In this document: piece after piece, positions 1,366 to 41,100 of the stretch
How positions within the stretch are numbered: the first letter of the stretch is position 1
How the letters are laid out: the number at the start of each line of letters is the position of its first letter
NCBI GenBank assembly: GCA_003990765.1
Contig: RBNJ01000042.1
Location: forward strand, 1 to 47,800
Source: Jimgerdemannia flammicorona
Taxonomy: Eukaryota
Reading direction: 5' to 3'
Length of the DNA stretch: 47,800 nucleotides
Made by a program: the position numbers and the translations under genes
Notes under the pieces: generated by a model
What the model saw: the letters and a program-made list of their open reading frames with translations, nothing else
Databases searched by the model: none
Told to the model about the DNA's origin: nothing

Positions 1366-1429
1366 TGTAATAGTCCACTTCCCTAATCATCCAAAGGATA
1401 AGAGAGGGATAGAAGTGAGAGTTATTACA
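1366..1429 (+). mobile_element. 64-bp remnant of a family-A-type LTR (TGTAATA...TTATTACA)
   Basis: CCCTAATCATCCAAAGGATAAGAGAGGGATAGAAGTGAGAGTTATTACA matches the LTR 3' end at ~28580-28628 and, reverse-complemented, at 20595-20645. TG...CA inverted termini. No TSD. Confidence 0.7.
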
Positions 1430-5350: not shown

Positions 5351-5986
5351 ATTTATACTTATTCACCTATCTGGTGTGACCTTCTTTTGATCACACTTTT
5401 AAGCAGAATATGTGACCTGTTGCTATAAGTGGAGCACATGCTGGTCATCTGAGAAAATCCTGATTTCAAAGATATTGCCACTTGTAGTTATGGTTATACA
5501 GAGTTGACAGATCTTGGTCCTTTTTTTTTTTTGTCTTGTTGGTACATTTGTGAGGACTGGCCATCCTTGTCTAGAGTGAGGGCTCTCATTATTGCAGCTG
5601 GGGGTTCAAACCTCTTGGAAATAGTATTTCTTATAATCTGAGGCAATTCCTAATAATAATATCTGTCATATAGATGGACTTAGATTGGTTTTGACATCAT
5701 CAGCTTTTCTAAGTTCTATATGAAGTATCTGTTATCATTCAGCAGAGATGATACAGATGTCATGAAATGGAGTTGTTCAAATACATTTTGCTATACTATA
5801 CTAGATTGTTCTTTATCTGAGTATCTTCTTATTGATTAATTATAGTATTCCTTTTTCTGCAATATTCAGTATTATGTTTTGGATAAAATATATGATGTCT
5901 TCTTTTGCTGCTATATGCTCTAAGTCTTAGAGCTGTAGTTCCTTCCTTTGCTAGGAGGTAAGTATTTCCATATAGTTCTAGAGGGC

Positions 5987-18168: not shown

Positions 18169-20329
18169 AGGTGATGCTGCTTTATACATAAGAACAAAGG
18201 AAGGCAAGAGGATTGGAAGAACTGGCGGCTGATAATGTTACTGGATATGGACAGAAAGTTGGTGACTAAGGTGGTGGTCGCAAGGCTACAGAAGGTAGCC
18301 CAGCAAATTGTAGGTGTCGAGCAGAGGGGCTTCATAGGGGGTCGGCTTATTAGAGATGGCATGGCCTGGGTATATGGAGTTATTGAAGGTGCTTGAGCCT
18401 GTAGACTGGATGGGTGTCTTGTCTTCTTGGACCAGGAGAAGACTTATGACCAGGTGTGGCGAGTCTGGCTGGTGAAAGTATTAGAAAGAATTGGGGTTCC
18501 AGTCCCATTCCGGTCGGTAATGGTCAGCCTACTGGAAAGGAGTAGGGCTGCACTAGTGTATAATGGGTATAGAGGGGTAGCATTCCCTCTAGGTAGGGGA
18601 GTGCCCCAGGGGGACCCACTGTCTCTCATTTTGTAAGCTCTTTCTTTGGAACCTCTAATGGACAGGATTCGGCAGAGGATGGTGGGGCTCTCTATCTATG
18701 GTGTTGGCTGGAAAGTTGGAGCCTTTGCAGATGATATGGTGGTTGGTTTGAGAGTGACTGCTGATGTCAAGGAGCTCAAGAAGACAGTGGAGTGGTATGA
18801 GGAGAACTCTGGGGCGAAGCTGAATTGGCACAAGTGCAAAACAATGGTGCTGGGCAATGGCCTGGTGGATGGAGAGGTTATTGGAACAATTGTCCCCACT
18901 GGAGAGGCAGTGTGGTACTTGGGCATCTATTTGTTGGTCTATGGATCTGTTCTGCCCAGACTGTGGTGGGAGCAGAGGATTGGAATTTGGGAGGAGGACC
19001 TGCAGGGTTGGGGGAAAAGACACTTCTCTCTTGCAGGAAGGATCTCGATTTTGAATGTATACTGGCTGCCGAAGCTGTGGTATTTGGCTTATCATCTGGA
19101 CTTCCAGCTTGGGTGGTGAAGAGATTAATGAAGGTGGCCAAGGGATGGATTTGGGCTGGCAGACAGAGTCAGATTGGTTGGGAGACTTTGTCCCTACCAG
19201 TGGCAAGAGGTGGCCTGGGGCTGGTGGACTTCCCCAAATGACTACACTGCTTGTGGGCATGGTGGCTTAAGAGGGCAGTGGAGTTGCATGGAGGGGGCTG
19301 GGTTCCCCTGCTGCAGAAGGTCTGGGAGAGGTGGTCATCACCAAGAGGCTCAACTGGTGATCTTCTTTCTTTAGTTGGGCTTTGGAACACTGCACAACTG
19401 CAATATAAAGGCTTTTGGTGGGGGATAGCCGAGGGGGTACACCACATTGGTATTCACTAGCAAGGGGATGAGGGGGAGAGGGCTTAGGGCCCAGTGATAT
19501 GGAGATGAGAGGGCATTCTTCTGGGAGGCATGCCTTTGCTTGAGTTCAGCATTGGTGATGGAATTGAATGCCAAAGGGGACCAGGCCAGGATCTGTGGCC
19601 TAGCGGTTGGCAGGGAGTTGGAATTGGTGAGGAGTGGGACTGGCATGGGGTTTGGACCTGGAGTGCTATGGTGAAAAATTGGATGCTGCCAAAGTACTGG
19701 GTGGTCTGGTGGCACATGCTGAGGAGGAATGTGATGCTTAACTTCTGCTCAGGACACTTTGTCATAGGGGGCTGCTTTGACTGTGAGGAGTGCCATAATG
19801 TAGGGCAGGAAGAGGGATTTGTACAGATGCCAGAACATTGGCTAGGAGAGTGTGAGGTATTGGGGAACTTTTGGCAGGCCATTGGAGACTGATTGGGGGT
19901 GAGGCGTAGGGGTGATGATGTATGGAGGAGGTGGGAGGACCTGAGGGATCGATTGGTAGGAGGGGTAGGGGAGGAGTGGATTACTTTAGGCTGGGTGTTG
20001 GCTATTTGGGTTGGGCTGGCCGGTCACTGGCTGTTTGTATTTGAGAAGAGGAGGTGACAGAGCTTAGGGAGCCAGTTATCACAGTGGCAGTGCCTTATGG
20101 AGGATACCTTGACAGGCTGGTGGCTTGGCTGGGGGCTGCAGGGGGGTCGGAGGCACCACTTAGTGGTGAAAATCTGTGGTCAGAGTGGTGGGAGAGTTGG
20201 AGTTATTGGTGAGAGGGTGGTCTTTATATGTGAAGAGGTGAAGAGGGGCCCCCCGATGGGGATTGGATAGTGGGTGGTGATATTGTATATTTATTCATAG
20301 ACTGGTAATAAAGACAGAGTCCAAGGGAC

Positions 20330-20594: not shown

Positions 20595-21360
20595 TGTAAT
20601 AACTCTTATTTCTATCTCTCTCTGATCCTTTAGATACTTAGGGAAATAAGGTATTACTTAGGGACTTAGTATACAATGTATACTAAGAAGCCTTTAGTTT
20701 GAGGAAGTGCTCACTTAAAAGTAGTTATAGCAGCAGTACCTTATCTTTTAAAGATCTTTCTGGTTTATCCTATCTTTTAAGAATCTTGTTCTTTACTGTG
20801 CACAGACTAAATTCACCTTGGAATTCAGATTTAATGAGTTTACTTAAGTCTTTGGGGATTTATATACTGGTCTCAGTTCTGGCAGAAGTTAGCTAGACTT
20901 CTGGAGTTTAGTCAGAAACACTAGAGTCACTTAGATGTCATTACTAAGACTTAGGAGAATGTGTGTATATGGAGGGAAACTTAATTCTTATATCAAGGAC
21001 TGAACCAAAACTGCTTTATTTTGAATAAAAACTGGGGGAGTATTTATACAAGTTGGTCCACAATTTCTGACTAAGTATGAATGACTAATTTGGTAACTAT
21101 AGTGAGGTTTTATAATTGTGACCTTTGTCAGATAGTTTGTGGCAAAAACAACTTTGTGATCAGGATCTCAATTACTAAGCAATAATTAGCTACTATGGCA
21201 ATAGTTGCTGTGGTGTTGATTATTAGAAATAAACTAGATATCATTTTTTATGTCATTTTCCACATTATTTGTCTATTATTCATATATCATGCTCAATCAT
21301 ATGATATTATTACTCACTAGATCACATGATCACTCATCTCATCATATCTTATTCATTCTA
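20595..21360 (-). repeat. A1 5' LTR (U3 boundary uncertain)
   Basis: Ends ...GAGTTATTACA on the minus strand. TATAAATA at ~21040-21047 and AATAAA at ~21015-21020 on minus. Repeated at 21366-21698 and 28330-28628. Confidence 0.75.
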
Positions 21361-21365
21361 TTATA

Positions 21366-21698
21366 CTACCCCTCTCTTATCCTTTGAATAATTAGAAAAA
21401 CAAGAGACTTAGTATACAATGTATACCAAGAAGCCTTCAGTGTGAGAAAGTATTCACTGGAAAGTAGTTATAGTGGCAGTGCTCTTCTTATCAACCATAG
21501 TTATAAGAGACTTATTCTTTACTATGTATAAACTAAATTCATCTTAAAATTCAGGTTCAATAAGAAGTTTACTTAAGTCTTTTATATTTATATACTAGTC
21601 TCAGTTTTGGCAGAAGTTAGCTAGGCTTCTGGAGTTTAGTCAGAAATAATAGAGTCACTTAGGTGTTATTACTAAGACTCAGAGAAATATATATATAT
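21366..21698 (-). repeat. Second, partial family-A LTR, split by B1 (continues 28299-~28345)
   Basis: Direct repeat of ~20612-20970. The sequence after B1 (GTATAGAGAGAGACTTGATTCTTATATCAAGGACTGAAC) continues the match to ~20966-21010. Confidence 0.85.
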
Positions 21699-22093
21699 TG
21701 TGACAGTATAGCCAAATTAGGAAGAAGGAAATAGGGAATAGACACTTGATCGCACCCATTCCCAAAGTAGTATAGCTTTATAGTTAGCAGTCGCTGATTT
21801 TGACATTGTCTAAATTTCTAGACATTGTCTAAATAACTCATAACTTAGCCATGTAACTCAGTAGCCATCTCATAGCTAGCAAACTTGTATAAATAATCCA
21901 GTATCTTCGAGTGAATAAACCTCAGATCGAAAGTGTTAGAAAAAGAACAAGTATACTGATAAAAAGACCTCTGGGATTACCTCTTTAAATACATTTGGCC
22001 TCAAGGAACTACTGACTCTGGGAGTCAAGAAGACAAGAATTCTAGATAAAGAAATCTGATGTACTTGCACATCTTAGTGTCTACTATGTTACA
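21699..22093 (+). repeat. B1 5' LTR (395 bp)
   Basis: TGTGACAG...GTTACA. TATAAATA ~21888 and AATAAA ~21914. Direct repeat of 27843-28298 lacking 61 bp. Confidence 0.93.
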
Positions 22094-22192: not shown

Positions 22193-25100
22193 ATGGATAT
22201 GAGACCCCCCATATTCCATGGATATATGTCCGATGAATCAATCATCACCTTCATTGATGATTTCGAGCAGTATGCTGCTGTAAGGACCTTAAGTGCAGCA
22301 CAATAAGTAGCCCTACTCTCTATAAGCCTCCGAGGCCTAGCAAGAACTGCATTTACTGCAGCCAATGTACAAGCAGCTGATGATCTAGCAAGAATCATAG
22401 CTTTCAAGACCTGGCTCCAAGCAACCTACTATACAGATGAAATCAAACAGGCACTCAAAGATCAACTGAATACTATCTGCCAAGGAATGTCTGAAGACCC
22501 AAACACATTCTATACAAGAATCCGACATCAAATAGTCCTTACTGACCACCCCAATGCAGTTCAAGACCAAGTGGCCGAGAATACCTTTATGAAAGGCATT
22601 TACCAAGAAATTACTTTAGCCATTCGATCTACCCCAACACTACTGGATGTGGGACAGAAGGATACCTACACCCAAAGATACTGAACTGCCAGATACCCTC
22701 AAGGCCATACAATGGAAAGGATAACTGGAGTAAAAATCAAACAAGCACCAAGAGTCACCAATACAATCCCGGCTACCATAGTCAACCAGAATATACAACT
22801 GCAACTACAAGACCAGAGAAGGGTTGACCCAATGGAGAAACTGGCCAAACAGTTTGCAGAAATGACTGCACACCTCAGCGATGTAGTCAAAGAGTTCAAG
22901 AAGAAGCCAGTATAGAAGTTTGCTGCTACAAATGCAAGATGATCAAAAACATGCTATAACTGTGGAGAAGAAGGCCACTATGCCTCTGAATGCATGACAG
23001 AAACCAAGCAAAAGGCCAATCCAAGCAATGCAACCAAGAACCGTGAATAAGCAAACACTATCACCTTTGAGGAGATTGGAGAATCCAAGGAAGAAAGAGA
23101 GGAATGGGAAGCTTTCCCTGCCACCTCAAGTAAGAAGGATGTCTGATCCAGTCTCTACAAAAGACCTTCAGGCAGACCTCCTAAGAAGGCCCAGACACAG
23201 ACAAAATAACCAGAAACAGTCATCGAAGAAAGAATTCAGCAGAGCAAAGCTGACCAAGATATGGAGCTAGAACAAGATACTGAGCTGGAGCGAGCAGTAG
23301 AAGATATTATTCGAAATACTACCCCATCAAGTGAAGGGAAGAAGGAGCAGAAACTACACAAGAGCAAGACCTTCAAGTATGACATCTTCAAGGACCTCAA
23401 GGACCAAAAGGTCAATACAACCTTTAGCCAGCTGGCTGAAATCCCAATATTTAGACAACAAATGAGGACAGAAATCTTAGACATCAGCAAAGACCAAGGT
23501 TACAGAATAATCGAAGCCAACAATGCACAAGAAGATTCAGATGAAGAAAGTGAAGATAACTGGAAAACATCAGCCTATGCTACCTGCCAGATTGAGGACC
23601 AGGTCTTTGAAGCCATCATTGATATAGGAGTAGGAGGTTGTCTCATCACTAAGAAAGCAGTAGACCACCTAGGCTGGAAGATAGAAGAAGCCATTAAACT
23701 GATATTCATCACAGCTGATGAAATATGAGCAACACCCTTGGGAAAGATCCGAGATGTACTAATCAAGTTCAGAGAGGCCACTATCCCTGTGAATGTTATC
23801 ATCACCAATGCAACCAACTATGATATCCTCATCAGCAATCAATAGCTTCATAAAGCCAAGGCAATGATTGACCTCAGTGCACAGAAGATGCAGATCATCT
23901 ACCAGGGAAAGAAGATCAGAATTCCCATCAATGTCCACAAAGGAGTCTACCCCGAGATGGAGAAAGACCAAAAAGAAGAAGTCTACATAGTTACTACAAA
24001 GAAAGGAAAAGACAAGCAATTGATAGAGGAAGAATGGTATACAAGAATCGCAGATAAATACACCCCACTAAGAAGGTGTCCCCATGATAAAAGAATGTAC
24101 TGTGCCCAGCACTTGGATCACTGCTACTCTTGTATCATTGAGGTGAAGAAGATCACCAACAAGCTAAAGAAGAACCAGGAGGAACTAGAAGATGGACCAC
24201 CAGAGTTATTGGATGACAGTGATAATGAGGATGAAGATATCACAGTCAAGATACGAAGGATTCACCCTGATGCAGTCATACCACAGTATAAGTTGGAGAA
24301 TACAGCTGGAATGGACCTATCTACTATTACACACACAATACTTGAACCACAGACCATTACCATTCTAGAAACAGGAATTGAAGTAACCATCCCACCAAAC
24401 CATGTCAGAATCCTCAAGACAAGGAGTAGCCTGATGAAAAGTGAAATATCTATAGAGTCATCGATTTGGATTATACTGAAGAAATCCTTCTCCTTGCCAG
24501 GAACTACAACCCAACAATCCCATTTGAAGTAAGGAAGAAGGATTGGCTGGCACAAATGCTCATCCTACCTATCCTTAATCCAAGAATCAAGGAGGTTGCA
24601 AACATCAGACAAACTCAGTGAGGGAGAGCTGGATTCAGCTCTACAGGAAGAGGAGTCCTCACAGCAACTAAGATCACCGAATTGGAGCACAAGAAGGAGG
24701 AAAGCCAAGACAAACACATCTATACAATCAGAAGAAACTTCCCCCTCAGGGAAGAATTGCAGAGCCTCTTGCATATATTCGAGAATGTACTGGCCATGGA
24801 TTTCAAGGACATCAATACCAAGAAACCCTTGTATTATCATGATGTCAATACTGGAGATGCAAAGCCAATCTATCAGAAGGCCTGCCCCATTCCACCAGCA
24901 TACAGAGAATGGCTCAAGACAGAGATCAAGGAAATGGAGGAATCTGGTATCATTGAAGAAGCCAGCAGCCCTTGGTCCTCTCCCATCATCCTTGTACTAA
25001 AGAAAGGAAGCCAACTAGGAGAATTTATACCAAGACTCTGCACAAACTATAGAAGACTCAATGAGGTCACAGAGAAGGACAGACAACCATTGCCAAACAT

Positions 25101-26169
25101 TGGCGATATTCTTATCATGCTGGAGAATGAATCACAATTCTACACCACTCTGGATCTGTTCTCAGGATTCTACCAAATCAGCCTTACACCTGAAGCCAGC
25201 AAAAGATCAGCCTTCATCACTCCCGATGAAACCTATGTCTATCTTCGCATGCCCTTTGGAATGTGCAATGCACCAGCAAGCTTCCAGTGAATGATGAATA
25301 GCATCTTCAGGGATGTTATGGAAAAATGGATGATGGTATATGTAGATGATGTAATCATCTTCAGCCGAACAGTCAAGGAGTACTTGGAACATGTTGAGGA
25401 AATCCTCAGAAGGCTTCCCAAATATGGCCTCTACATCAAGCCCAAGAAATGCAAGTTCAGAGAAAAAGAGATTGCATGCCTTGGACACATTATTAACTGT
25501 AAAGGAATACACACAGATCCCACAAAGATCAAAGCAGTAGCAGCATACCCAGTACCTATCAGCATCATAGAAGCCTGAGCCTTCATGGGACTTGTATCCT
25601 ACTACAGAAGATTTATTAGAAGATTCTCCCACATTGCCAGCCCTATCTATGATCTATTCAGAAAAGAGGTTAAGTTCCAGTGGACTCAGCAGCAGCAACT
25701 AGTCTTTGATGAGCTCAAGACCAGATTGACCCAGGCCCCAATCTTGAGAAGACCTGACTGAACTCAGGAGTTTATTCTGCAAACAGATGCCAGTGCAATG
25801 GGACTTGGAGCTGTCCTTGCACAAAAGAAAAATGGTGCCGAATATGTGGTAGCCTATCTCAGCTGAGGTACTCGTGGGGCAGAGCAGTCCTATGAATCTT
25901 ATAAGCTGGAATGCCTTGCAGTCATCTGGGCTATAGGGAAGTTCCACTACTATCTGGCTGGCAGACACTTCACTATTCAGACAGATTATTTGGCACTCAC
26001 CTAGTTGCTCACTACCAGTGAGCCCAAAGGAATCTATACCTGATGGCTCATGAAGCTGCAAGCATATGATGCCATGATCACCCACTGCCCTGGAAGAACC
26101 AATGCCAATGCTAATGCCCTCTCATGGACACTCCAAAGGACCCCACCCCCACAAAATCACCATGAATAA
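22193..26169 (+). pseudogene. gag-pol: B1 ORF1: gag-PR-Cys/His linker-dUTPase-RT-RNase H (single ancestral frame)
   Basis: PPIFHG..FIDDFE, CYNCGEEGHYASEC, IIDIG (IIDTGA in B2), LDLFSGFYQI, MPFG, YVDD, TDAS, ANALS. Fragments at 22487, 22712, 23261 and 23864 share one frame. The frameshift in the dUTPase is absent from B2. Confidence 0.9.
24239..24648 (+). pseudogene. dut: B1 dUTPase domain between PR and RT (small frameshifting deletion)
   Basis: AGMDL, TGIEV, RSSL, VIDLDYT, LAQML, GFSSTG. Confidence 0.9.
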
Positions 26170-27354
26170 GGAGCTGTACTATGGAATCATCAGCTATCTG
26201 AGGCAGCGAAAGATGCCCCCACATCTGGAAGAATGGACAAAAACAATTATTAATTGGACATGGAAACAATTCGAAACTGATGGAGAAACACTCAAGAAAG
26301 GACAACAATTAGTCATCCCCGAGCACCGGAAGAATTAAGTGATGAAAGAAGTATATGAACAGGGTCATGTAGAAGGAACAAATATGTATGATAAAGCAAG
26401 AAGAACCATGTGGTGGTCTGGAATGGAAGAAGATATCAGACAATTTGTTAGAACCTGTGACAAATGTCAGAAACAGAAACAAGACTGATGGGATCAAGCC
26501 CCTGGATCAGTAGACATCGAACCAATACTATTTGCCCACATTGCAATAGATGTAATTGGCCCTCTACCCCTAACATTGACTGGCAACTGATATGTCATTG
26601 TAATAGTAGACCTGTTTACAAAATAGGTAGAGGCTGGGCTGCTCAAGGAAGCCAATGCATAGTTAATTGCCGATTTCTTGCACAGAGAAATCATCTGCCA
26701 ATTCAAGACCCCAAAGCAAGTTACCACAGACAGAGGAACAGAATTTATCAACCAGTTTTATGAGATTCTTTACAAGAAGTACAAGATCCAATACTCAAGA
26801 CCACTGTATATCACCTATAAGGAAATGGACAAGCAGAGAGAACTAACAAGACCCTCAAGAACATCATCGCCAAGATCTGTGATGAATATGGAAACTGGGA
26901 CCACTATCTTCCAATAGCATTATCCACTCTGTGGGACATACAATCACAAAGTACCCATTTTATACCATGAGAAATGCTATTCAGCGAAGAAAGTTCTGGT
27001 GGAAGTTTGTTAGCAAGTAATAATGTAATTTGGAAGCATGTGGACACGGAGATATGGAGATTGCACCAGATCAGAAAAAAGGCAGAGGATTACATAATCA
27101 AGGCGCAGGCACTACAATGGAACAATGCAGAAAAAACCCACAAGCCCCTGGAGATTATCAAGATAGGAGATGAAGTCCTAGTATATCAGAACATGGTAGA
27201 AGCTTCTTGGTCATGAAAATTGGAGCCTAAGTGGGAGGGACCTTATCTGGTACAAGATATAAAAGGGACTACTTTCTGGCTATGAAAGCCCTCAGGTACA
27301 ATAATCCCCCCCACCATTCATCGAAACCAACTCAAGAAGTACCATGGCCAATAA
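26162..27354 (+). pseudogene. B1 integrase, in a frame separate from RT-RH
   Basis: MNKELYYGIISYL..., H..WWSGM..CDKCQ, IDVIGP, TDRGTEF, GQAER, WEGPY, LKKYHGQ*. A few stops and a 1-nt deletion relative to B2. Confidence 0.88.
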
Positions 27355-27805
27355 CCGAAGCACCGCAATGGCACTCAAGATCATTAGTGCTGCCCAAAGA
27401 GCCATTAAAAGACAATGGCACACCACCAAGCCTCTGACCATAGAGGCATACTATGAGGATATTCAGAGCATTGTGCAGACTCATCTCTCTCAGATCTCAC
27501 ACTTTAGAGCCTATCAGTATCGGGCAGAATTCCAAGAGTACTTCAAGCTTGGGCAGGTGCTCAATCAGGATCCAGCAAAGACCAAAGAGGACTGGATTGC
27601 TGAGTGTCAACTCTCCCACTCACAGATCACTATTGCCAAAAGGATCTACAAGTTATTCCAAGAAGATGAATCAGCAATAGATCACCTGAGAGGAGTAACC
27701 CCCATCAACTTCGAGAAAGTAAGAAAACATTATTGGGAAACAGTCATGCAGCAAATTGCACAGTATAAGACCATACAGACAGTTGAAACCTGGGAGTTTG
27801 AATAG
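27344..27805 (+). CDS. Extra 153-aa ORF of unknown function between integrase and PPT
   Basis: Uninterrupted ATG-TAG ORF with ACCATGG context. Equal-length (462 nt) homolog in B2. Confidence 0.8.
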   Translation: MANNRSTAMALKIISAAQRAIKRQWHTTKPLTIEAYYEDIQSIVQTHLSQISHFRAYQYRAEFQEYFKLGQVLNQDPAKTKEDWIAECQLSHSQITIAKRIYKLFQEDESAIDHLRGVTPINFEKVRKHYWETVMQQIAQYKTIQTVETWEFE

Positions 27806-27832
27806 ATGTCTCAGGGATGAGACCATCTATTC

Positions 27833-27841
27833 AGGAGGAAG
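27833..27841 (+). promoter_or_regulatory. B1 polypurine tract
   Basis: AGGAGGAAG immediately before the 3' LTR. AGAAGAAAG in B2. Confidence 0.75.
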
Positions 27842-27842
27842 T

Positions 27843-28298
27843 TGTGATGGTATAGCCGAATTAGGAAGAAGAAAATAAGGAATAGACACTTGATCACACC
27901 CATTCCCAAAGTAGTATAGCTTTATAGTTAGCAGTCGCCAATTTCGACATTGTCTAAATTTCTAGACATTGTCCAAATTGAACACCCTGATTTAGTATAG
28001 TATTTTGACATTGTCTAAATTTCTAGACATTGTCTAAATGACTCATAACTTAGCCGCATAACTCAGTAGCCATCTCATAGCTAGCAAACTTGTATAAATA
28101 ACCCAGTATCTTCAAGTGAATAAACCTCAGATCGAAAGTATTAGAAAAAGAACAAGTATACCGATAAAAGGACCTTCAGGATTACCTCTTTAAACACATT
28201 TGGCCTCAAGGAACTACTGATTCTGGGAGTCAAGAAGACAAGAATTCAAAATAAAGAAATCTGATATACTTGCACATCTTAGTATCCACTATATTACA
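27843..28298 (+). repeat. B1 3' LTR (456 bp)
   Basis: TGTGATGG...ATTACA, direct repeat of the 5' LTR. Confidence 0.93.
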
Positions 28299-31103: not shown

Positions 31104-31578
31104 TGTAACGTAGCAGACACTAAGATGGACAAGTATGTCGGATTTCTTTATCTTGAATTCTTGTCTTCTTGACTCCCAGAGTCAGTAGTTTCTTGAGGCT
31201 AAATGTGTTTAAAGAGATAATCCCGAAGGTCCTTTTATTGGTATACTTGTTCTTTTTCTAACACTTTTGATCTGAGGTTTATTCACTCGAAGATACTGGG
31301 TTATTTATACAAGTTTGCTAGCTATGAGATGGCTACTGAGTTATGTGGCTAAGTTGTGAGTCATTTAGACAATGTCTAGAAATTTAGACAATGTTGAAAT
31401 GCTATACTAAATTGGGATGTTCGATTTGGATAATGTCTAAGAATTTAGACAATGTCTAAGAATTTAGACAATGTCGAAATTCAGGACTGCTAACTATAAG
31501 ACTATACTACTTTGGGACTGGGTGCAATCAAGTGTCTATTCCCTATTTCCTTCTTCCAAATTTGGCTGTACTGTCACA
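31104..31578 (-). repeat. B2 3' LTR (475 bp)
   Basis: TG...CA termini; repeat of 37330-37823. Confidence 0.93.
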
Positions 31579-31615
31579 ACTTTCTTCTAAATAGATGGTC
31601 TCATCTCTGAGGCAT

Positions 31616-32077
31616 CTATTTAAACTCCCAGGCTTCAACTATCTGTATGGTCTTGTACTGTGCAATTTGCTGCATGACTGTTTCCCAATGATGTCTTCTC
31701 ACTTTCTTGAAGTTGGTGGGGGTTACTCCTCTCAGGTGGTCTATTGCTGGTTCATCTTCTCAGAATAACTTGTAGATCCTTTTGGCAATAGTGATCTGTG
31801 AGTGGAAGAGTTGATACTCAGCAATCCAGTCCTCTTTGGTCTTTGCTGGATCCTGATTGAGCATCTGTCCAAGCTTGAAGTACTCTTGGAATTCTGCCTG
31901 ATATTGATAGGCTCTAAAGTGTGAGATCTGAGAGAGATGAGTCTGCACAATACTCTGAATATCCTCATAGTATGCCTCTATGGTCGGAGGCTCGGTGGTA
32001 TGCCATTGTCTTTTGATGGCTCTTTGGGCAGCACTAGTGATCTTGAGTGCTATCACAGTGCTTCAGTTATTAGCCAT
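31616..32077 (-). pseudogene. B2 copy of the extra 153-codon ORF (premature stops)
   Basis: Near-identical peptide ALKITSAAQRAIKRQWHTT...IAKRIYKLF. Stops are TGA from CGA-type codons. Confidence 0.82.
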
Positions 32078-33260
32078 GGTACTTCTTGAGTCGGTTTCGA
32101 TGAATGGTGGTAGGGATTATTGTGCCTGAGGGCTTTCGTAGCCGGAAAGTAGTCCCTTTTATATCTTGTACCAGATAAGATTCTTCCCACTTGGGCTCTA
32201 GTTTTCGTGACCAAGAAGCTTCTACCATGTTCCGATAAACTAGGACTTCATCTCCTATCTTGATAATCTCCAGGGGCTTGTGGGTCTTTTCCACATTGTT
32301 TCATTGCAGTGCCTGCACCTTAATTATATAATCCTCTGCCTTTTTCCTGATCTGGTGCAATCTCCATATCTCCATGTCCACATGCTTCCAAATTGCATCA
32401 TTACTTACTGACAAACTTCCACCAGAACTTTCTTCACCGAATAGCATTTCTCATGGTGTAAAATGGGTACTTTGTGATCATATGTCCTGCAGAGTGGATA
32501 ATGCTATTGGAAGATAGTGGTCCCAGTTTCCGTATTCATCACAGATCTTAGCGATGATGTTCTTGAGGGTCTTGTTGGTTCTCTCTGCTTATCCGTTCCC
32601 TTGTGGGTGATATGCAGTAGTCTTGATGTATTGGATCTTGTACTTCTTGTAAAGAATCTCATGAAACTGGTTGATAAATTCTGTTCCTCTGTCCATGGTA
32701 ACTTGCTTTGGGGTCTTGAATCGGCAGATGATTTCTCTGTGCAAGAAATCGGCAATTGACTGTGCATTGGCTTCCTTGAGTGGCCCAGCCTCTACCCATT
32801 TTGTAAACAGGTCTACTATTACAATGATATATCAGTTGCCAGTCAATGTTAGGGGTAGGGGGCCAATTACATCCATTGCAATGTAGGCAAATGGTATCGG
32901 TTCAATGTCTGCTAATCCAGGGGCTTGATCTTATCAGTCTTGTTTCTGTTTCTGGCATTTGTCATAGGTCCTGACAAATTGTCTGATATCTTCTTCCATT
33001 CCAGGCCACCACAAGGTTCTTCTCACTTTTTCAAATGTGTTTGTTCCTCCTATGTGACCTTGTTTGTGTATTTCTTTCATCACTTGATTCTTCCAGTGCT
33101 CGGGGATGACTAATTGTTGTCCTTTCTTAAGTATTTCTCTATCAGTTTCGAATTGTTTCCATGTTTGATTAATAATTATTTTTGTCCATTCTTCCAGATG
33201 CGGGGGCATCTTTTGCTGCCCCAGGTAGCTGATGATTCCATAGTACAGCTCCTTATTAAT
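32067..33260 (-). pseudogene. B2 integrase, in a frame separate from RT-RH
   Basis: HKQGHIGG..WWPGM..DKCQ (HHCC), MDVIGP, DRGTEF, WEESY, RNRLKKYHG. Confidence 0.88.
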
Positions 33261-36200
33261 GGTGATTTTGTGGGGGTGGGGTCCTTCGGGGTGTCCATGA
33301 GAGGGCATCAGTATTGACGTTGGTTCTTCCAGGGCAGTGAGTGATCATAGCATCATATGCTTGCAGCTTCATGATCCATCAGGCATAGATTCCTTTGGGC
33401 TCACTGGTAGTGAGCAACCAGATGAGTGCCGAATGATCTGTCTGGATGGTGAAGTGTCTGTCAGCCAGATAGTAGTGGAACTTCTCTACAGCCCAGATGA
33501 CTGTAAGACATTCCAACTTGTATGATTCATAGGACTGCTTGGCTCCTCGAGTACCTCAGCTGAGATAAGCTACCATGTATTCAGTACCATTCTTCTTTTG
33601 TGTGAGAACAGCTCCAAGTCCCATTGTACTGGCATCTGTCTGCAGAATAAACTCTTGAGTCTAGTCGGGTCTTCTCAGGATTGGGGCCTGGGTCAATTGG
33701 GTCTTGAGCTTGTCAAAGACTAGTTGCTGCTGCTGAGTCCACTGGAACTTGACCTCTTTTCTGAACAGATTATAGATAGGACTGGCGATGTGGGAGAACC
33801 TTCTGATAAATCTTCTATAGTAGAATGCAAGTCCCATAAAGGCTTGGGCTTCAGTGATACTGGTAGGTACTGGGTATACTGCTACTGCTTTGATCTTTGT
33901 AGGGTCTGTATGTATTCCTTCACAGTTGATGATGTGTCCAAGGTATGCAATTTCTTCTTCTCCAAACTTGCATTTCTTGGGCTTGATGTAGAGGCCATGT
34001 TTACGAAGCCTTCTGAGAATTTTCTCGATGTGTTCCAAGTGCTCCTTGGCAGTTTGACTGAAGATGATCATATCATCTACATATACCATCATCCATTTTT
34101 CCATAACATCCCTGAAGATGCTGTTCATCATTTGCTAGAAGCTTGCTGGTACATTGCACATTCCAAAGGGCATGCAAAGATAGACATAGGTTCCATCAGG
34201 AGTGATGAAGGCTGATCTTTTGCTGGCTTTAGATGTAAGACCAATTTGGTAGAATCCTGAGAACAGATCCAGGGTGGTGTAGAATCATGATTTATTCCCC
34301 AGCATGATAATATCACCAATGTTGGACAACGGTTGTCTGTCCTTCTCTGTGACCTCATTGAGTCTTCTATAATCTGTGCAGAGTCTTGGTGCAAACCCTC
34401 CTGGTCAGCTTTCTTTCTTTGGTACAAGGACAATGGGAGAGGACCAAGGGCTGCTAGCTTCTTCAATGATACTAGATTCCTCCATTTCCTTGATCTCTGT
34501 CTTGAGCCATTTCCTGTATGCTGGTGGAATGGGGCAGGCCTTCTGATAGATTGGCTTTGCATCTCCAGTATTGATATCATGATAATATAAGGGTTTCTTG
34601 GTCTTGATGTCCTTGAAATTTGTGGCCAGTACATCCTCGAATATATGCAAGAGGCTCTGCAATTCTTTTCTGAGGGGGAAGTTTCTTCTGATTGTGTAGG
34701 TGTATTTGTCTTGGCTTTCCTCCTTCTTGTGCTCCAATTTGGTGATCTTAGTTGCTGCAAGGACTCTTCTTCCTATAGAGCTGAATCTAGCTCTCTCTCG
34801 CTGAGTTTGTCTGATATTTGTAACCTCCTTGATTCTTGGATTAAGGACAGGTAGGATGAGCATTTGTGCCAGCCGATCCTTCTTCCTTACTTCAAATGGG
34901 ATTGTTGGGTTGTGGTTTCTGGCGAGGAGAAGGATTTCTCCAGTATAATCTGAATCAATGACTCCTCCTTCTATAGATATTTTGCTTTTCGCCAGGCTAC
35001 TCCTTGTCTTGAGGATTCCGACATGGTTTGGTGGGATGGTTACTTCAATTCCTGTTCCTAGAATGGTAGTGGTCTGTGGTTCGAGTATTGTGCATGTAGT
35101 AGTAGATAGGTCCATTCCAGCTGCATTCTCTGACTTGTACTGTGGTATGACTACATTAGGGTGAATTCTTCGTATCTTGACTGTGATGTCTTCTTCATCA
35201 TCGCTGTCATCCAATAGTTCTGGTGGTCCATCTTCTAGTTCCTCCTGGTTCTTCTTTAGCTTGTTGGTGATCTTCTTCACCTCAATGATACAAGAGTAGC
35301 AGCAATCCAAGTGCTGAGCACAGTACATTCTTTCACCATGGAGGCACCTTCCTAGTGGGGCATATCCATCTGCGATTCTTGTATAATATTCTTCCTCTGT
35401 CAATTGCTTGCCTTTTCCTTTCTTTGTAGTAACCATGTAGACTTCTTCTTCTTGGTCTTCCTCCATCTCGGGGCAGACTCCTTTGTAGACATTGATGGGA
35501 ATTCTGATCTTCTTTCCCTGATAGATGATCTGCATCTTCTGTGTACTGAGGTCAATTATTGCCTTGGCTTTATGAAGCCATTGATTGCTGATGAGGATAT
35601 CATAGTTGGTTGCATTGGTGATGATGACATCTACAGAGATAGTGGCCTCTCCAAACTTGATTGGTACATCTCGGATTTTTCCCAAGGGTGTTGCTCATGT
35701 CCCATCAGCTGTGACAAATAACAATTTGGTGGCTTCTTCTATCTCTCAACCTAGGCAGTCTACTGCTTTCTTAGTGATGAGACATCCTCCTGCTCCTGTA
35801 TCAATGATGGCTTCAAAGACCCGGTCCTCGATCTGGTAGGTAGCATAGGCTGATGTTTTCCAGTTATCTTTACTCTCTTCATCTGAATCTTCTTGTGCAT
35901 TGTTGGCTTTGATTATTCTGTAACCTTGATCTTTGCTGATGTCTGAGATTTCCATCCTCATTTGTTGTCTGAATATTGGGATTTCAGCCAGCTGGCCAAA
36001 GGTTGCATTGACCTTTTGGTCCTTGAGGTCCTTGAAGATATCATACTTGAAGGTCTTGCTCTTGTGCAATTTCTGCTCCTTCTTCCCTTCACTTGATGGG
36101 GTAGTATTTCGAATAATATCTTCTACTGCTTGCTTCAGTTCAGCATCTTGTTCTAGCTCTATATCTTGATCAGCTTTGCTCTGCTGGTTCTCTTTTTCGA

Positions 36201-37230
36201 TGACTGTTTCTGGTTGTCTTGTTTGTGTCTGGGCCTTCTTAGGAGGTCTGCCTGGAGATCTTTTGTAGGGACTGGATCAGATATCCTTCTTGCTTAAGGT
36301 GGCAGGATAAGCTTCCCATTCCTCCCTCTCTTCCTCAGATTCTCCAATCTCCTCAAAGGTGATAGTGTTTGCTTGTTCGCGGTTCCTGGTTGCATTGCTT
36401 GGATTGACCTTTCACTTGGTTTCTGTCATGCATTCAGAGGCATAGTGGCCTTCTTCTCCACAGTTATAGCATGTTATTGATTATCTTGCATTTGTAGCAG
36501 CAAACTTCTGTACTGGCTTCTTCTTGAACTCTTTGACTACATTGCTGAGGTATGCAGTCATTTCTGCAAACTGTTTGGCCAGTTCCTCCATTGGGTCGAC
36601 CCTTCTCTGGTCTTGTGGTTGCAGTTGTGTATTTTGGTTGACTATGGTAGCCAGGATTGTATTGGTGACTCTTGGTGCTTGTTTGATTTTTACTCCAGTT
36701 ATCCTTTCCATTGTATGGCCTTGAGGGTGTCTGGCAGTCCAGTATCTTTGGGCATAGGTAACCTTCTGTCCCAGGTTCAGTATTGTTGGGGTAGATCGAA
36801 TAGCTAAAGTGATTTCTTGGTGAATGTCTTTCATAAAGGTATTCTTGGCTACTTGGTCTTGAACTGCATCGGGGTAGTCAGCAAGGACTATTTGATGTCA
36901 GATTCTTGTATAAAATGTGTTTGGGTCTTCAGACATTCCTTGGCAGATAGTATTCAGTTGATCTTTAAGTGCCTGTTTGATTTTGTCCATATAGTAGGTT
37001 GCTCGGAGCCAGGTCTTAAAGGCCAGGATTCTTGCTGGATCATCAGCTCCTTGTACATTAGCTGCAGTAAACGTGGTTCTTGCTGGGCCTCAGAGGCTCA
37101 CAGGGAGTAGGGCTACTTGTTGTGCTGCCGATAAGGTTCTTACAGCAGCATACTGCTCGAAATCATCAATGAAGATAATGATTGATTCATCAGAGGTATA
37201 TCTATGGAATACAGGTGGTCTCATAACCAT
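33253..37230 (-). pseudogene. gag-pol: B2 ORF1: gag-PR-linker-dUTPase-RT-RNase H
   Basis: A 426-aa open stretch (34405-35685) joins the PR C-terminus, dUTPase and RT start in one frame. IIDTGAGG, YVDD, TDAS. Confidence 0.92.
34773..35187 (-). pseudogene. dut: B2 dUTPase domain, open frame within the decayed polyprotein
   Basis: AAGMDL, GTGI, RSSLA, GGVIDSDYTGEI, DRLAQ, RERARFSSIG. Confidence 0.93.
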
Positions 37231-37329
37231 TCTGTCTGATTGTGTTGTGTGGGTTCTGGTTGAGGTTGTTTATTGTTCAGCTTGAAAGTGAGGAATTCAT
37301 CTTGAATTACCAGCCAATGGGCATCAAGT

Positions 37330-37823
37330 TGTAATGTAGTGGATGCTAAGATGAGCAAGTACATCAGATTTCTTTATCTTGAATTCTTGTCTTCTTGACT
37401 CCCAGAGTCAGTAGTTTCTTGAGGCCAAATGTGTTTAAAGAGATAATCCCGAAGGTCCTTTTATCGGTATACTTGTTCTTTTTCTAACACTTTTGATCTG
37501 AGGTTTATTTACTCAAAGATACTGGGTTATTTATACAAGTTTGCTAGCTATGAGATGGCTACTGAGTTACGTAGCTAAGTTATAAGTCATTTAGACAATA
37601 TCTAGAAATTTAGATAATGTTGAAATGCTATACTAAATCAGGACATTCGATTTAGATAATGTCTAAGAATTTAGACAATGTCTAAGAATTTAGACAATGT
37701 CTAAGAATTTAGACAATGTCGAAATTCAGGACTGCTAACTATAAGGCTATACTACATTGGGACTGGGTGCGATCAAGTGTCTATTCCCTATTTTCTTCTT
37801 CCAAATTTGGCTGTACCATTACA
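37330..37823 (-). repeat. B2 5' LTR (494 bp)
   Basis: TG...CA termini; PBS adjacent at 37313-37326. Confidence 0.93.
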
Positions 37824-38149
37824 ATAGCAAGAAAGAGTTTGGAATAACCAACAAACCCCTCAGTCAAAAGTTTACCACTATGAAGGAAGATAATAAAAAC
37901 TAGTACAAGAGAATTGCAGATAGTTATACACTATGTGAATGATGCCCTTATTCTATTTGAATGTACTGCATAGAATATATTAGTAAATGCCATGCATGCC
38001 TCTCTAAAGTTTTCAAAATCCAACCTGAGAAATACCAAGCCCAACAGACTGAGGAATCCAAACAAGACCACTCCTCTTATAAAGAATGGAAAGAGACTGA
38101 CTTTGAGGAGACTGACAGCAATTGGAACAATGAGAATGAAGAGCTCAAT

Positions 38150-41100
38150 ACTATCAAAAAGGAGAACAGTTGTATCAAATTCACAGGCCAAGTTCACAGA
38201 CAGAATATCAATGTCTTACTTGATAGTAGTACTACTGGAAACTATATCAGCACCAAGACTGTCAAGAGGATTGGAGTCCAAAGCAGACCAGCTACTGAGA
38301 AAAAGAGTATTACTTTTGATAATGGCAAGACTGCACTATTGATCAAGATCTACAAAGACTTATTGCTCAGGATTAGTGATGTTGGGCTTCAGCATCATAG
38401 ATCTTTCAGGGCAAGATATTATCCTAGGAAAATCCTGGTTGACACAGTATAACCCAGATATCAACTGAAAGACCATGAGGTTAATCTGATCTATGAAGGC
38501 AGAAAGATCACTCTGTCACTCCAAGAAGGTACCAACTATCAAGAAATTGAAATCATCTCTGCCATTCAAATAAAGAGACTCTTCTATAAAAAAGGAAACA
38601 CCTATTTCATCTATACTATGCAAAAAGTCACTGAAACCCCAAGTAGCCCAATTCTACCAGAAGCTTAAGAACTGTTTGAGGAATTTCTAGATATATTATA
38701 GAAATCTAAAGGACTTCCACCTAAGCATCAATTTCAATGTGGAATTGATCTCATTCTAGAATCTGAACCTCTATATAAGAGTATCTACCAGCTGACCCAA
38801 CCTGAACTCAAGATCCTCAAATATAAGTTGATCAAACTATTGACTTAAGGATATATTGAACCCAGCTGCTCTCCATTTGGAGCCCCTATTCTATTTATCA
38901 AAAAGAAAGATAGCTCTCTACAAATATATATTAACTACTGAGCTCTCAACAAATTACCATTAAGAACCAGTATATCTTACCTAGGATTGATAAGTTATTA
39001 TACCAAATCTTCAAGACCAAGACCTTTTTTCTACTGAACTTGTGAAATAGTTACCACTAGATTCTCATTAATGAGAAGGACATTGAGAAGACAGTTTTCT
39101 GAATACAGTTTAGATACTACTAGTTCTAAGTTATGCCTTTTGGTTTGACCAATATACCAGTAACATTCCAGTATCTGATGAATGACATCTTTAGACCACT
39201 GCTCAACATTTGTGTCCTTATATATATTGATGATATACTAATTTACAATAAAACAGTAGAGTTATACTATACTCACCTCAGATAAGTACTAACCCTTCTA
39301 CAAGAACACTAGCTCTATACCAAGATGAGCAAGTATAAGTTCTATCAAGATGAGATTGAATATCTAGGGCATATCATCTCTGCTGAAGATATCAATATAG
39401 ACCTCCAAAAGATATCAGCCCTTAAAGACATTCTCATCCTCACTACTCTCAAGCTACTCCAGCACTTCTTGGATATTGTAGCCTCACTGATCAGTCTGGC
39501 CTGCAAAAAAGTGAACATCAAGACTAAATAGACCTCTGAGTATATCTAGACTATAGACTATCTCAAGAGACTCCTTATCAAGGCTCTAGTGTTCATTGTA
39601 CCTAACCCTACCAAGCTATTCACTCTGACTACAGATGCCTCTGATATTGCCATTGGGGTAGTACTTAGCCAAGAAGATCACTCAGTGGTCTATCTCTCTC
39701 AAAAGCTTAAGCCAGCTAAGATCCAGTATACTATCCATGAGAAGGAACTCCTGGCCATTGTCACTGCACTCTAAGAATAGAGTCATTTCCTCCTAGAACA
39801 ACTATTTATAGCCTATACTGATCACTATACTCTATGGTATATTCACATACAGCTCATGTTGATCTATAGACAAGCCTATTAAATAGAAATCATTGTCAAC
39901 TTTGATATGGAAATCAAGTATATACTAAGAAAAATCAACCATATGGCTGATGGTTTCTCCAGATATATAAAAGATGAATTTGTCTTCATAATTAAGATAA
40001 TTAGATATCTCACTCAAATGATTAAGAATGGCTATCAACAGAATAGCTCTCTGGTGAAATTCCTTCAATTCTACTAAGACCCAGAGGCTGAGATCTCAGA
40101 ATCCATAAGGCAAATATCCAAAAGATTCACTTACCATGATGGACTTATATATAGAGACTATAACAGAGTGGTTGTACTCAACAATAATACTCTGTAGCTC
40201 AAGATCATATAGCAACTCCATGACACTCCTACAGCAGAATACTTTGGTTTTGAGAAGACCTACAATCTCCTCTCAAGAGAGTTCTACTGGCCAAAAATGA
40301 CCAAGAATATTAAAGATTTTATAGCTCATATGAGATATACTAAAGATTCAAGAGTAGTAACAAGCTATCAATAGGACTTCTATAACTCCTACCTATCCTA
40401 AATAATAACTGGAATCAGATTACCATAGACTTCATTGTCCAGCTCTCTAAGACTAAGGCAGAATGAGATGCCATTATAGTATTTGTGGACTACCTAAGCA
40501 AACAAGCTCATTTTGTACCTACTAAGACTACTACTACAGTACTAGAGATTGCTGAGATCTTTCTCAACCAAGTATTCAGGTTGTATAGCATACTTAGCAC
40601 TATTATATCTGACTGAGATATGAATTTTACAAGTAACTTCTGGAAGGCATTCTTCTCTCTCTATAGAATCAAGCTGAAGTTCTCTACTATCTACTATCCT
40701 CAAACTGATGGTCAGATTAAGTGAACCAATAGGACCCTCAAGCAAATGCTCAGTATCTTCTGCTGTTATAAGCAAAATGATTGAGACAAGTACCTAGCCT
40801 ATATTGAGTTTGCCTATAATAATAGCCAGCAAATCTCAATAAAGAAGACTTCATTCTTTCTGATGATCAATACCTAAGGACTCTAAGCACTACTGCAAAA
40901 TCAGTAGTCCCAGTAGCCTAAGATCTGGCCAAGACTATTTATGACCTTATCTGAATGATAAGAGATGCTCTTATAGAAGTACAGAACTACTAGACCAAGT
41001 ATATAAACTTGAAGTGAAGGGCAGTCTCATATAACATTGGTGACATAGTCATGCTTAGAATAGACCACCTCTACCCAGATACTCTGGTACAGTAGCCAGC

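Follow-up and report, generated by a model that had tools for sequence, protein, structure and literature searches.

To our knowledge, LTR retrotransposons commonly have an extra gene at the env position, and almost none of these genes has a known function. Most have been accepted just for having an open frame. The additional sense ORFs (aORF-3S) of plant elements share with the gene analyzed here, ORF3, their place and orientation, their presence in all family copies seen and their lack of similarity to known proteins. However, the plant ORFs taken up in the accounts we draw on are mostly env-like with transmembrane segments, whereas ORF3 is short, soluble and predicted to be all-helical, and its element, unlike the plant cases, has a dUTPase and no chromodomain. 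Models considered for additional ORFs include retroviral accessory factors (PMC7264820). PosPlaTy3-5 is reported as a Ty3/gypsy element with a dUTPase between PR and RT, and a figure legend of the same paper notes extra ORFs to which it assigns no function (PMC2864245, 2010). B1, the element that carries ORF3, has both of these features, the extra ORF being compared by description only; the elements in the portion of that paper used here carry a chromodomain, whereas the B1 family is without one (PMC2864245). The LTR retrotransposons of bdelloid rotifers carry diverse ORF3s (Rodriguez, Kenefick and Arkhipova 2017, PMC5408684). They share the backbone of B1 (dUTPase between PR and RT, a GPY/F integrase, no chromodomain), and we count it as a further likeness that their ORF3s are family-specific, located 3′ of pol, modular, and shared or swapped between lineages. 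The types named in the part of that work drawn on here are env-like, GDSL esterase, DEDDy exonuclease, coiled-coil and transmembrane (PMC5408684), but none of these domains was found in B1 ORF3. Finally, nuclear export of the genomic RNA of the Caenorhabditis elegans Ty3/gypsy element Cer1 requires CERV, part of whose coding sequence occupies the env position (PMC10309623). As far as that source goes, CERV resembles ORF3 in being specific to its element, without outside homologues, encoded in the env position at least in part, and no envelope protein. Among functional models for genes of this sort it is the best studied, but the analogy with ORF3 is one of function only: CERV has 517 aa, a five-exon spliced mRNA and an N-terminus in common with Gag (PMC10309623), whereas ORF3, of 153 aa, starts at an AUG of its own.

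Layout and decay of elements B1 and B2

The window, that is, the whole stretch of 47,800 nucleotides analyzed, contains two related elements, B1 and B2 (Table 1). Between its LTRs, B1 has the domain order gag(CCHC)-PR-dUTPase-RT-RNaseH-IN, which is that of a dUTPase-bearing Ty3/gypsy (Metaviridae) element. An earlier note on this DNA had pointed to an ORF of 153 aa in B1, and an ATG-to-stop frame of that length is indeed present on the plus strand, filling the gap from the integrase stop to the polypurine tract and 3′ LTR of the decayed element. By position (past pol, before the polypurine tract/3′ LTR and on the gag-pol strand) it is an additional sense ORF (aORF-3S, or ORF3). The remaining sizeable ORFs of B1 are gag-pol fragments, which leaves ORF3 as its sole intact gene, as the note had it. 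The same pol-ORF3-polypurine tract/LTR layout is found in B2 and in L001, a nearly intact third copy on a metagenome contig. No antisense ORF of at least 60 aa overlaps ORF3, and tblastn with ORF3 as the query matched nothing at E<1 in the whole window, the element's own gag and pol included, other than B1 ORF3 and B2 ORF3.

Table 1. Coordinates of the features of elements B1 and B2 in the window.
Feature	Position	Strand	Remarks
B1 5′ LTR	21699..22093	+	pairs with 27843..28298
Candidate primer-binding site	from 22097	+	TGGTGCCCATTGG; after B1 5′ LTR
B1 gag-PR-dUTPase-RT-RNaseH coding region	22307..26169	+	decayed; Pfam, stops read as X
B1 zf-CCHC	22946-22996	+	Pfam
B1 aspartyl protease	23582-23809	+	Pfam
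B1 dUTPase	24272-24469	+	Pfam
B1 RVT_1	25036-25494	+	Pfam
B1 RNase H	25681-26067	+	Pfam
B1 integrase reading frame	26162..27354	+	decayed; 9 internal stops, 1-nt deletion at 26794
RNaseH/IN stop-start junction	26162-26169	+	ATGAATAA; overlapping ATG and stop
B1 RNase H-frame stop	26167-26169	+	TAA; end of RNase H frame
B1 Integrase_H2C2	26315-26482	+	inside integrase frame
B1 rve	26540-26791	+	inside integrase frame
B1 GPY motif	27238-27246	+	integrase frame, upstream of ORF3
ORF3 of B1	27344..27805	+	open, 153 codons plus TAG stop; ATG in GTACC ATG G
IN/ORF3 stop-start junction	27344-27354	+	ATGGCCAATAA; overlapping ATG and stop
B1 integrase-frame stop	27352..27354	+	TAA; within ORF3 codons 3-4; read from sequence
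B1 polypurine tract	27833..27841	+	AGGAGGAAG; 27 nt past ORF3 stop; abuts 3′ LTR; kept in B2 and L001
B1 3′ LTR	27843..28298	+	TGTGA...TTACA
Element B2	31104..37823	-	3′ LTR 31104-31578, 5′ LTR 37330-37823
ORF3 relic of B2	31616..32077	-	same length as B1 ORF3; stops at codons 5 and 106

In B1, B2 and L001 the integrase frame lies at +1 with respect to RT-RNaseH. ORF3 in turn lies at +1 with respect to the integrase, with which it overlaps by 11 nt in B1. The nearest in-frame stop is 13 codons 5′ of the ORF3 ATG, so that the open stretch crosses the end of the integrase gene, and Pfam, with stops read as X, found no chromodomain in B1. This arrangement would suit a C-terminal extension of the integrase, reached by +1 ribosomal frameshifting and acting as a targeting module in place of a chromodomain (compare the chromoviruses): both steps are +1, the family is without a chromodomain and the ORF3 frame is open across the integrase end. 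Nevertheless, we regard this as improbable. B1, B2 and L001 share an identical start context for ORF3 (GTACC ATG G, with the strong ACCATGG), a search for a conserved slippery or stall motif turned up nothing, a C7 run at 27307-27313 being present in B1 only, and the integrase frame of L001 just continues for 10 codons to its own stop. A fused form was found in 0 of the 127 longer proteins considered as candidates, which is weak evidence. Likewise, ORF3 is not the usual integrase C-terminal domain, a finding that would have refuted the earlier note's reading, as the GPY motif lies upstream of it in the integrase frame and ORF3 is in the +1 frame with its own AUG.

B2 is 90.8% identical to B1 over 6536 aligned columns and still carries a 376-aa ORF that runs from the dUTPase into RT. 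Its ORF3 aligns to that of B1 with 0 gaps, at 93.3% nucleotide identity (31 of 462 positions differ) and 87.6% amino acid identity. The claim of a homolog of identical length and free of indels therefore stands, but not as an intact copy: codon 5 (32065-32063) reads TGA where B1 has CGA, and codon 106 (31762-31760) reads TGA where B1 has CAA. Nor is the lack of indels special to ORF3, because the whole internal regions of B1 and B2 (about 5.7 kb) differ by just 4 indels, of 3, 7, 3 and 1 nt. In the part of B1 pol comparable with L001 there are 14 stops in 605 codons. A model based on stop-prone codons gives 3.8 expected stops for B1 ORF3, against 0 observed (P(0)≈0.02), and 2.75 for B2 ORF3, against 2 observed. 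The open frame in B1, taken alone, is thus weak evidence for coding. The window holds 54 stop-to-stop frames of at least 130 aa, B2 ORF3 has stops, and the B1/B2 comparison by itself yields ω 0.36 from 28 differences, a pair that is unable to show selection because both elements are dead. These observations would all be congruent with a non-coding spacer, placed between pol and LTR, in which a frame happens to be open by chance. Whatever its origin, the ORF3 copies of the window are fossils in dead elements, open in B1 and with two stops in B2, and nothing suggests present activity.

Selection on the ORF3 protein

The decisive evidence against a chance frame comes from outside the window, namely from L001. 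Its ORF3 is open over 153 codons, and all 153 align to B1 without an indel, at 66% protein and 68% DNA identity. The differences fall 35, 26 and 86 on the first, second and third codon positions (chi-square p=5e-10), with pN 0.20 and pS 0.79. Estimates of dN/dS were 0.215/1.74 (LWL85), 0.264/1.98 (YN00) and 0.241/2.07 (ML), which gives ω≈0.12, a value that is only approximate because it relies on a single divergent DNA comparator and a saturated dS. The other two sense frames gave ω of 0.98 and 1.80, with 6-10 stops. For comparison, ω was 0.13-0.22 in the integrase and 0.07 in RT-RNaseH, so purifying selection on the ORF3 protein appears about as tight as on the integrase. A dN/dS near 1, or a disrupted frame in the family, would have counted against the reading of the earlier note; the ratio found is about 0.12, and the frame is undisrupted in L001 and free of internal gaps in 16 of 16 aligned sequences (14 database proteins, L001 and B1), while indels start right past the ORF3 stop codon. 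The in-frame ω, the excess at third positions and the gap-free frame indicate, at the level of sequence comparison, that ORF3 is a genuine protein-coding accessory gene under purifying selection. A chance frame is scarcely credible given these results.

The 14 database relatives of ORF3, retrieved by a word-index search of 5.8 billion proteins with a profile, are 58-78% identical and either unnamed or labeled 'hypothetical'. They lie on contigs of at most 3 kb, are open by ascertainment, and none is longer than 153 aa. A phmmer search of 1.84 billion representatives gave 4 matches at E<=1e-3, three of which are members of the family. The fourth, a 776-aa repeat protein (P0007; E=6.6e-4 over 5 stretches), was discarded as a relative, with an hhalign probability of 0.5%. 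None of the 91 stretches from a metagenome peptide-pattern scan, nor of the 8 from a scan of viral contigs, was related to ORF3; a match on an archaeal MAG contig in a DNA-pattern scan of genome contigs was to the motif only, and we judged it due to chance. One soil-metagenome run contained many contigs related at 80-99%, and among 40 of the 255 rows for its variants at least 7 fall in ORF3, at least 4 of these at third positions, which are too few to use. The sequencing-run search listed no RNA run, and two DNA-type runs with small shares.

These searches bear on whether ORF3 could be a piece of a host gene taken up by transduction and kept as a passenger. LTR retrotransposons are documented to capture additional ORFs, in the parts of the literature used here (PMC5408684, PMC7264820). 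For ORF3 we find such an origin very improbable: no cellular homologue was detected among the 1.84 billion representatives or in the 5.8-billion-protein profile search, all matches are 58-78% identical, no longer than 153 aa and on short contigs, and the gene, under selection, is present in three of three DNA copies (B1, B2 with its 2 stops, and L001), that is, not as a one-off transduction. The searches also gave nothing to link ORF3 with proteins of arbuscular mycorrhizal fungi, a resemblance suggested in the earlier note, and the G+C content across the window (34-53%) does not suggest a mycorrhizal-fungus genome, given what we take to be the composition of such genomes.

A probable separate history of ORF3 and U3

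The divergence from L001 is distributed unevenly along the 3′ part of the element. Transversions common to B1 and B2 with respect to L001 number 26 in positions 25528-27343 (1.4%) and 0 in 27097-27348, then 65 in 27349-27775 (15%), 0 in 27776-27851 and 10 in 27852-27899. The ratio of transitions to transversions is 109:12 in the integrase and 82:65 in ORF3. In all, ORF3 and the first part of the LTR show about ten times the divergence of pol, and the change is abrupt, at the start of ORF3. This step points to recombination: ORF3 and the neighboring U3 appear to share a separate and much deeper history than pol, best explained by an exchange with its breakpoint at the pol/ORF3 junction.

The same divergence could be read as the mark of a gene engaged with the host. 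The coding status of ORF3 would be unaffected, but its product would be a counter-defence or host-adaptor protein (anti-silencing, or Vpr/Vif-like) that binds a host protein and not the nucleic acid of the element. Retroviral Vpr/Vif-like adaptors are precedents for such a role. ORF3 lineages are far more diverged than pol, and the protein is a lineage-restricted orphan without a cellular relative, small, predicted to be helical, rich in conserved aromatics and not basic. However, an ω of about 0.12 with saturated dS speaks of conservation and not of an arms race. Moreover, the deep divergence is to be ascribed to age or recombination, and not to positive selection, because synonymous sites and U3 are affected too. 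Therefore, we consider a host adaptor unlikely.

The ORF3 protein and its possible role

ORF3 had been described as a conserved accessory gene that takes the env position without being an env, and the comparisons made here bear this out. The protein has no signal peptide and no membrane segment (highest 19-residue Kyte-Doolittle mean 0.13, GRAVY -0.60), for which reason we do not regard it as an env, and no env family of Pfam matches it or any of the 16 members. Its pI of 5.7-7.9, with K+R about equal to D+E, means that it is not a basic protein, and conserved aromatic residues are abundant in the family. Two structure models of low confidence (mean pLDDT 47 and 56) conflict at residues 81-107: the first has helices at 60-73, 81-88 and 92-107, and thus a helix-turn-helix, whereas in the second 81-115 are merged into one long helix. 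ORF3 is predicted to be a soluble, all-helical protein, and relatives were detected only within the element family.

The earlier note had seen in it a likeness to the helix-turn-helix proteins of the DUF3102/YhcG-N type, which gained no clear support here. Pfam gave nothing significant in any of the 16 members, so no family ties ORF3 to nucleic acid; the best match of helix-turn-helix type was HTH_Tnp_Mu_2, in 2 of 16 members (E=0.031). DUF3102 (PF11300) is, like ORF3, a small helical protein, but its HMM matched 0 of 16 members at E<=10. Two clusters, in which PF11300 is carried by 58% and 10% of the members, faintly resemble ORF3 by language-model features, the first at 0.90 (134 features shared) and the second at 0.89 (126), which is within the range of chance. 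The same holds for the best named clusters of the language-model protein atlas, at 0.93 (T4-type translation repressor, closterovirus coat and DUF6192). A sequence-profile search of the PDB gave a single chance match (E=0.61). With the low-confidence models, VIA-align against 48,161 chains reached a best Z of 5.0, on generic helices, and Foldseek gave 0 matches at E<=1e-3 against the PDB and likewise against BFVD.

The explanation that we favor overall, and hold to be fairly probable, is that ORF3 is a real third gene of a Ty3/gypsy family, possibly coding for a trans-acting regulator, with a probably recombined ORF3/U3 history. The role itself is a tentative suggestion made by analogy: the protein may be a trans-acting regulatory accessory factor, modeled on the retroviral proteins of the Rev/Tas type and on CERV of Cer1. 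It would bind the nucleic acid or nucleoprotein of its own element and would help to export or use the genomic RNA, or would control transcription through the adjacent U3. Its output would be low, with ribosomes either reinitiating on the genomic RNA once integrase has terminated or translating a subgenomic message. From the ORF3 ATG to the integrase stop downstream of it the distance is 33 nt in L001, as against 8 nt in B1, which weakens the case for a tight coupling of stop and start.

A more speculative extension of this favored explanation, which we think rather unlikely to hold in full, starts from the two junctions listed in Table 1, both of which are +1 steps where an ATG in good context is followed within a few bases by the stop of the preceding frame. 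Three overlapping frames on one genomic RNA would then be translated in order by termination and reinitiation, gag-PR-dUTPase-RT-RNaseH first, integrase second and ORF3 third, and ORF3 would be a sequence-specific regulator that moves together with its U3, the two forming an exchangeable 3′ module. Such a module would explain the roughly tenfold divergence with respect to pol and a breakpoint exactly at the start of ORF3. If true, reinitiation would set falling doses, from structural and replicative proteins through integrase to the regulator. Titles and abstracts in a literature search did not describe a separately translated integrase or a reinitiated accessory gene for LTR retrotransposons.

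On the alignments presented here, the coding status of ORF3 is demonstrated: change at synonymous sites has reached saturation, whereas the protein has been kept, down to its exact length. The window itself is still a graveyard, its elements dead. As a soluble orphan without a recognizable fold, ORF3 stands out as a clean candidate from which a new class of regulatory or accessory proteins of retroelements might be defined. The overlap of stop and start at both junctions hints at an unusual dosing of the integrase and the accessory protein, and the step in divergence at the start of ORF3 would provide a concrete case of module exchange among retrotransposon lineages.

Element copies and their setting

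Retrotransposon remains crowd the window, we recognised no host gene in it, and a scan of 16 further long frames returned retroelement domains in three and nothing in 13. Two of the remains, B1 and B2, are decayed Ty3/gypsy copies on opposite strands. The B1 LTRs are 93% alike in the ungapped blocks given by the repeat finder, and a Pfam scan of its interior with stops read as X found, in order, a zinc knuckle, aspartyl protease (PR), dUTPase, RVT_1, RNase H, Integrase_H2C2 and rve, but no chromodomain. B1 is a Ty3/gypsy element with its dUTPase between PR and the reverse transcriptase (RT). B2 matches it at 90.8% identity over 6536 aligned columns, and the whole interiors differ by four small indels only. 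One 7-nt deletion in B1 falls within the region of the 376-aa dUTPase-RT frame of B2, and 99 nt of B2 are missing from the B1 5′ LTR (at 21808). Elsewhere, Pfam gave no match for a block of periodic 9-nt repeats (families D1 and D2) whose three plus-strand frames are all open (364-401 aa). Another repeat family, in three copies 69-86% alike, has a strong G-over-C skew (up to +0.5), and an opposite-skew region at 10-14 kb may be its inverted relative.

Features of the window discussed in the text
Feature	Position	Strand	Remark
B1 5′ LTR	21699-22093	+	TGTGA...TTACA pair
B1 dUTPase domain	24272-24469	+	between protease and RT
ATG before RNaseH-frame stop	26162-26164	+	ATGAATAA at 26162-26169
TAA of RNaseH frame	26167-26169	+	B1
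GPY motif	27238-27246	+	B1
ORF3	27344-27805	+	153 codons, ATG to TAG
Integrase-frame TAA	27352-27354	+	B1
Polypurine tract (PPT)	27833-27841	+	begins 27 nt past ORF3 end
B1 3′ LTR	27843-28298	+	TGTGA...TTACA pair
Element B2	31104-37823	minus	second copy
ORF3 counterpart in B2	32077-31616	minus	same length
B2 open frame	34405-35535	minus	single, 376 aa, from before dUTPase into RT
Direct repeat	20858-20970 / 21586-21698		113 nt, 88%, just upstream of B1
Periodic block	239-1444	+	9-nt repeats
Three-copy repeat family	1430-5432, 18188-19674, 42292-46284
RVT_1 fragment	4220-4720		in one copy of the three-copy family
Integrase_H2C2 fragment	7132-7536	minus	remnant of a further LTR element
gag-type aspartyl protease fragment	37961-38449	+	further LTR element, just beyond B2 5′ LTR

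Coding status of ORF3

The earlier note proposed that a conserved accessory gene unlike env occupies the env position of family B, and the 153-codon frame it named, ORF3, is indeed present. An in-frame stop lies 13 codons upstream of its ATG, which precedes the integrase TAA by 8 nt in the +1 frame relative to integrase. The expected homolog in B2 has the same length, no indels and 93.3% nucleotide identity, but it is not intact, as stops interrupt codons 5 and 106. Nor is the lack of indels distinctive, because the whole interiors are nearly free of them. The open frame in B1 is by itself only mildly unusual: its pol has 14 stops in the 605 codons comparable with L001, a nearly intact third copy on a metagenome contig, and scaling by stop-prone codons (CAA, CAG, CGA and TGG) gives 3.8 stops expected in B1 ORF3 (P(0) ~0.02), while in B2 two are seen against 2.75 expected. 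Between B1 and B2, ω (dN/dS) of ORF3 is 0.36 on 28 differences; this pair cannot test selection, since its 7-9% divergence is mostly decay after insertion, the LTR pairs themselves being ~7% apart.

L001 was the one locus returned by a DNA-pattern scan of metagenome contigs for a nine-residue motif conserved among protein relatives. Its RT-RNaseH is open over 208 codons, a single stop interrupts the 397 codons of its integrase, and its ORF3 is open over 153. From RT through the end of ORF3 its alignment with B1 and B2 is gap-free except where B1 has lost 1 nt, and indels (5 nt and 1 nt) begin directly past the ORF3 stop. Against B1, the ORF3 protein is 66% identical and the DNA 68% (147 differences in 459), and the differences fall 35/26/86 on codon positions 1/2/3 (chi-square p=5e-10). 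With pN at 0.20 and pS saturated at 0.79, three estimators gave dN 0.215-0.264, dS 1.74-2.07 and ω 0.12-0.13, against 0.13-0.22 for integrase and 0.07 for RT-RNaseH, all values that decay in B1 raises. The other two sense frames of the same DNA gave ω of 0.98 and 1.80 with 6-10 stops, and no antisense frame of at least 60 aa overlaps ORF3. Databases hold 14 relatives at 58-78% identity, unnamed or 'hypothetical' and all on contigs of 3 kb or less, which align with the B1 and L001 proteins with zero internal gaps. The codon-position bias, the low ω and the gap-free relatives show that ORF3 is a protein-coding gene in which purifying selection keeps both sequence and exact length. The accessory-gene proposal is thus supported, with neither neutral dN/dS nor family-wide frame disruption.

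The product is not an env protein, as the earlier note held: it lacks any hydrophobic segment (19-residue hydropathy peaks at 0.13, GRAVY is -0.6 and pI 5.7-7.9). Its +1 frame and the missing chromodomain also exclude the usual C-terminal domain of integrase, or any in-frame part of that protein. We found no likeness to the rest of its own element, and an exhaustive phmmer search of 1.84 billion representative proteins gave no cellular relative, only three family members and a 776-aa repeat protein, which profile-profile comparison rejected (probability 0.5%). Pfam on all 16 family members and a PDB profile search were empty. Two AlphaFold models (7 and 16 sequences) were all-helical but poor (pLDDT 47 and 56), best at residues 61-100; one has a three-helix unit (60-73, 81-88, 92-107), the other a single helix over 81-115. 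Fold searches with them gave generic helical matches only (best Z 5.0), and Foldseek none at E<=1e-3 in PDB and BFVD. Among language-model look-alikes, 8 of 30 named clusters came from a set with 58% PF11300 (DUF3102) carriers, and the likeness of the PF11300 cluster (score 0.90, 134 shared features) lay within the tool's chance range. The likeness to helix-turn-helix DUF3102 proteins raised by the earlier note thus finds no more than a faint echo, and a helix-turn-helix is one candidate fold.

Mosaic divergence and decay

Per 90-nt window, L001 and the B copies are 82-97% identical in pol, 63-70% within ORF3, and ~80% from the last part of ORF3 across the spacer and PPT into the LTR tip. Over 25528-27899, pol is ~88% identical with almost all differences transitions, while ORF3/U3 (63-70%) has many transversions. 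Transversions against L001 shared by B1 and B2 number 26 in 25528-27343 (1.4%), 0 in 27097-27348, 65 in 27349-27775 (15%), 0 in 27776-27851 and 10 in 27852-27899; integrase has 109 transitions to 12 transversions, and ORF3 has 82 to 65. The boundary at 27349 is sharp, and protein selection cannot produce this jump because it is tenfold, starts from the second ORF3 codon and includes synonymous sites. Recombination between lineages where pol meets ORF3 would explain this most simply, ORF3 and U3 then being an older module joined onto a younger, shared pol. The transversion-free 76-nt island, which reaches from the end of ORF3 across the spacer and PPT into the LTR tip, would be held by the cis-acting needs of the PPT and LTR end, or mark a second breakpoint. 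At 1-120, in the U3 of its 3′ LTR, L001 also carries a head-to-tail array of five or more AGATGTAGAGATCTTAGC-like 18-nt units, which B1 and B2 lack.

Decay in 25528-27343 is one-sided, C>T or G>A making up 64 of 78 changes on the B1 branch and 59 of 83 on that of B2; the B1 C>T changes include 27 in CpA and 13 in CpG, as raw counts without normalisation for dinucleotide content. This deamination or RIP-like pattern is compatible with a fungal host, not proof of one. B1 and B2 have stops at the same codons (RT-RH 78, 113, 172; IN 109, 143, 270), where L001 has CGA or TGG, and IN codon 155 is TAG in L001 and B1 and TGG in B2. These common stops are likely parallel hits at hot-spot codons, although descent of B1 and B2 from an already damaged copy may also account for those that these two share.

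Probable expression and possible function

All three DNA copies read GTACC ATG G at the start of ORF3, and an A at -3 with a G at +4 is a strong initiation context. The integrase stop follows it by 8 nt in B1/B2 and 33 nt in L001. This stop-start architecture recurs upstream, where an ATG (ATT in B2) lies 5 nt ahead of the RNaseH-frame stop, just past an ADALSR-type RNase H end. Integrase is +1 to RT-RNaseH in B1, B2 and L001, a family feature rather than a lesion because integrase is still selected across these lineages, and the family seems to encode it as a separate overlapping ORF. Two serial overlaps suggest translational coupling through reinitiation, which has precedents among RNA viruses. 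ORF3 may instead be fused to integrase by a +1 frameshift; none of 127 candidates had a longer fused form, which is weak evidence against it. A spliced subgenomic mRNA is equally possible as reinitiation, being described for env genes and for CERV, the protein of C. elegans Cer1 (PMC7264820, PMC10309623).

Over 25300-27900, 354 contigs at 80-99% likeness came from soil-metagenome run X2 and 14 from a second run, X1. In at least one environmental data set, therefore, the family is both abundant and diverse. Bdelloid rotifers are described as having family-specific, modular ORF3s, on elements sharing the backbone seen here: dUTPase between PR and RT, GPY/F and no chromodomain (PMC5408684). Fungi, too, are noted to have Ty3/gypsy elements that carry a dUTPase, and 'additional ORFs of unknown function' (PMC2864245). 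The B1 protein fits none of the ORF3 types described. Its position, size, solubility and strict conservation, read beside known cases, make an integrase extension improbable and a host-directed adaptor or counter-defence protein unlikely. By analogy with CERV (PMC10309623) and the retroviral accessory factors described in PMC7264820, we tentatively suggest that ORF3 may encode a trans-acting regulator of the element's own RNA or U3 DNA.
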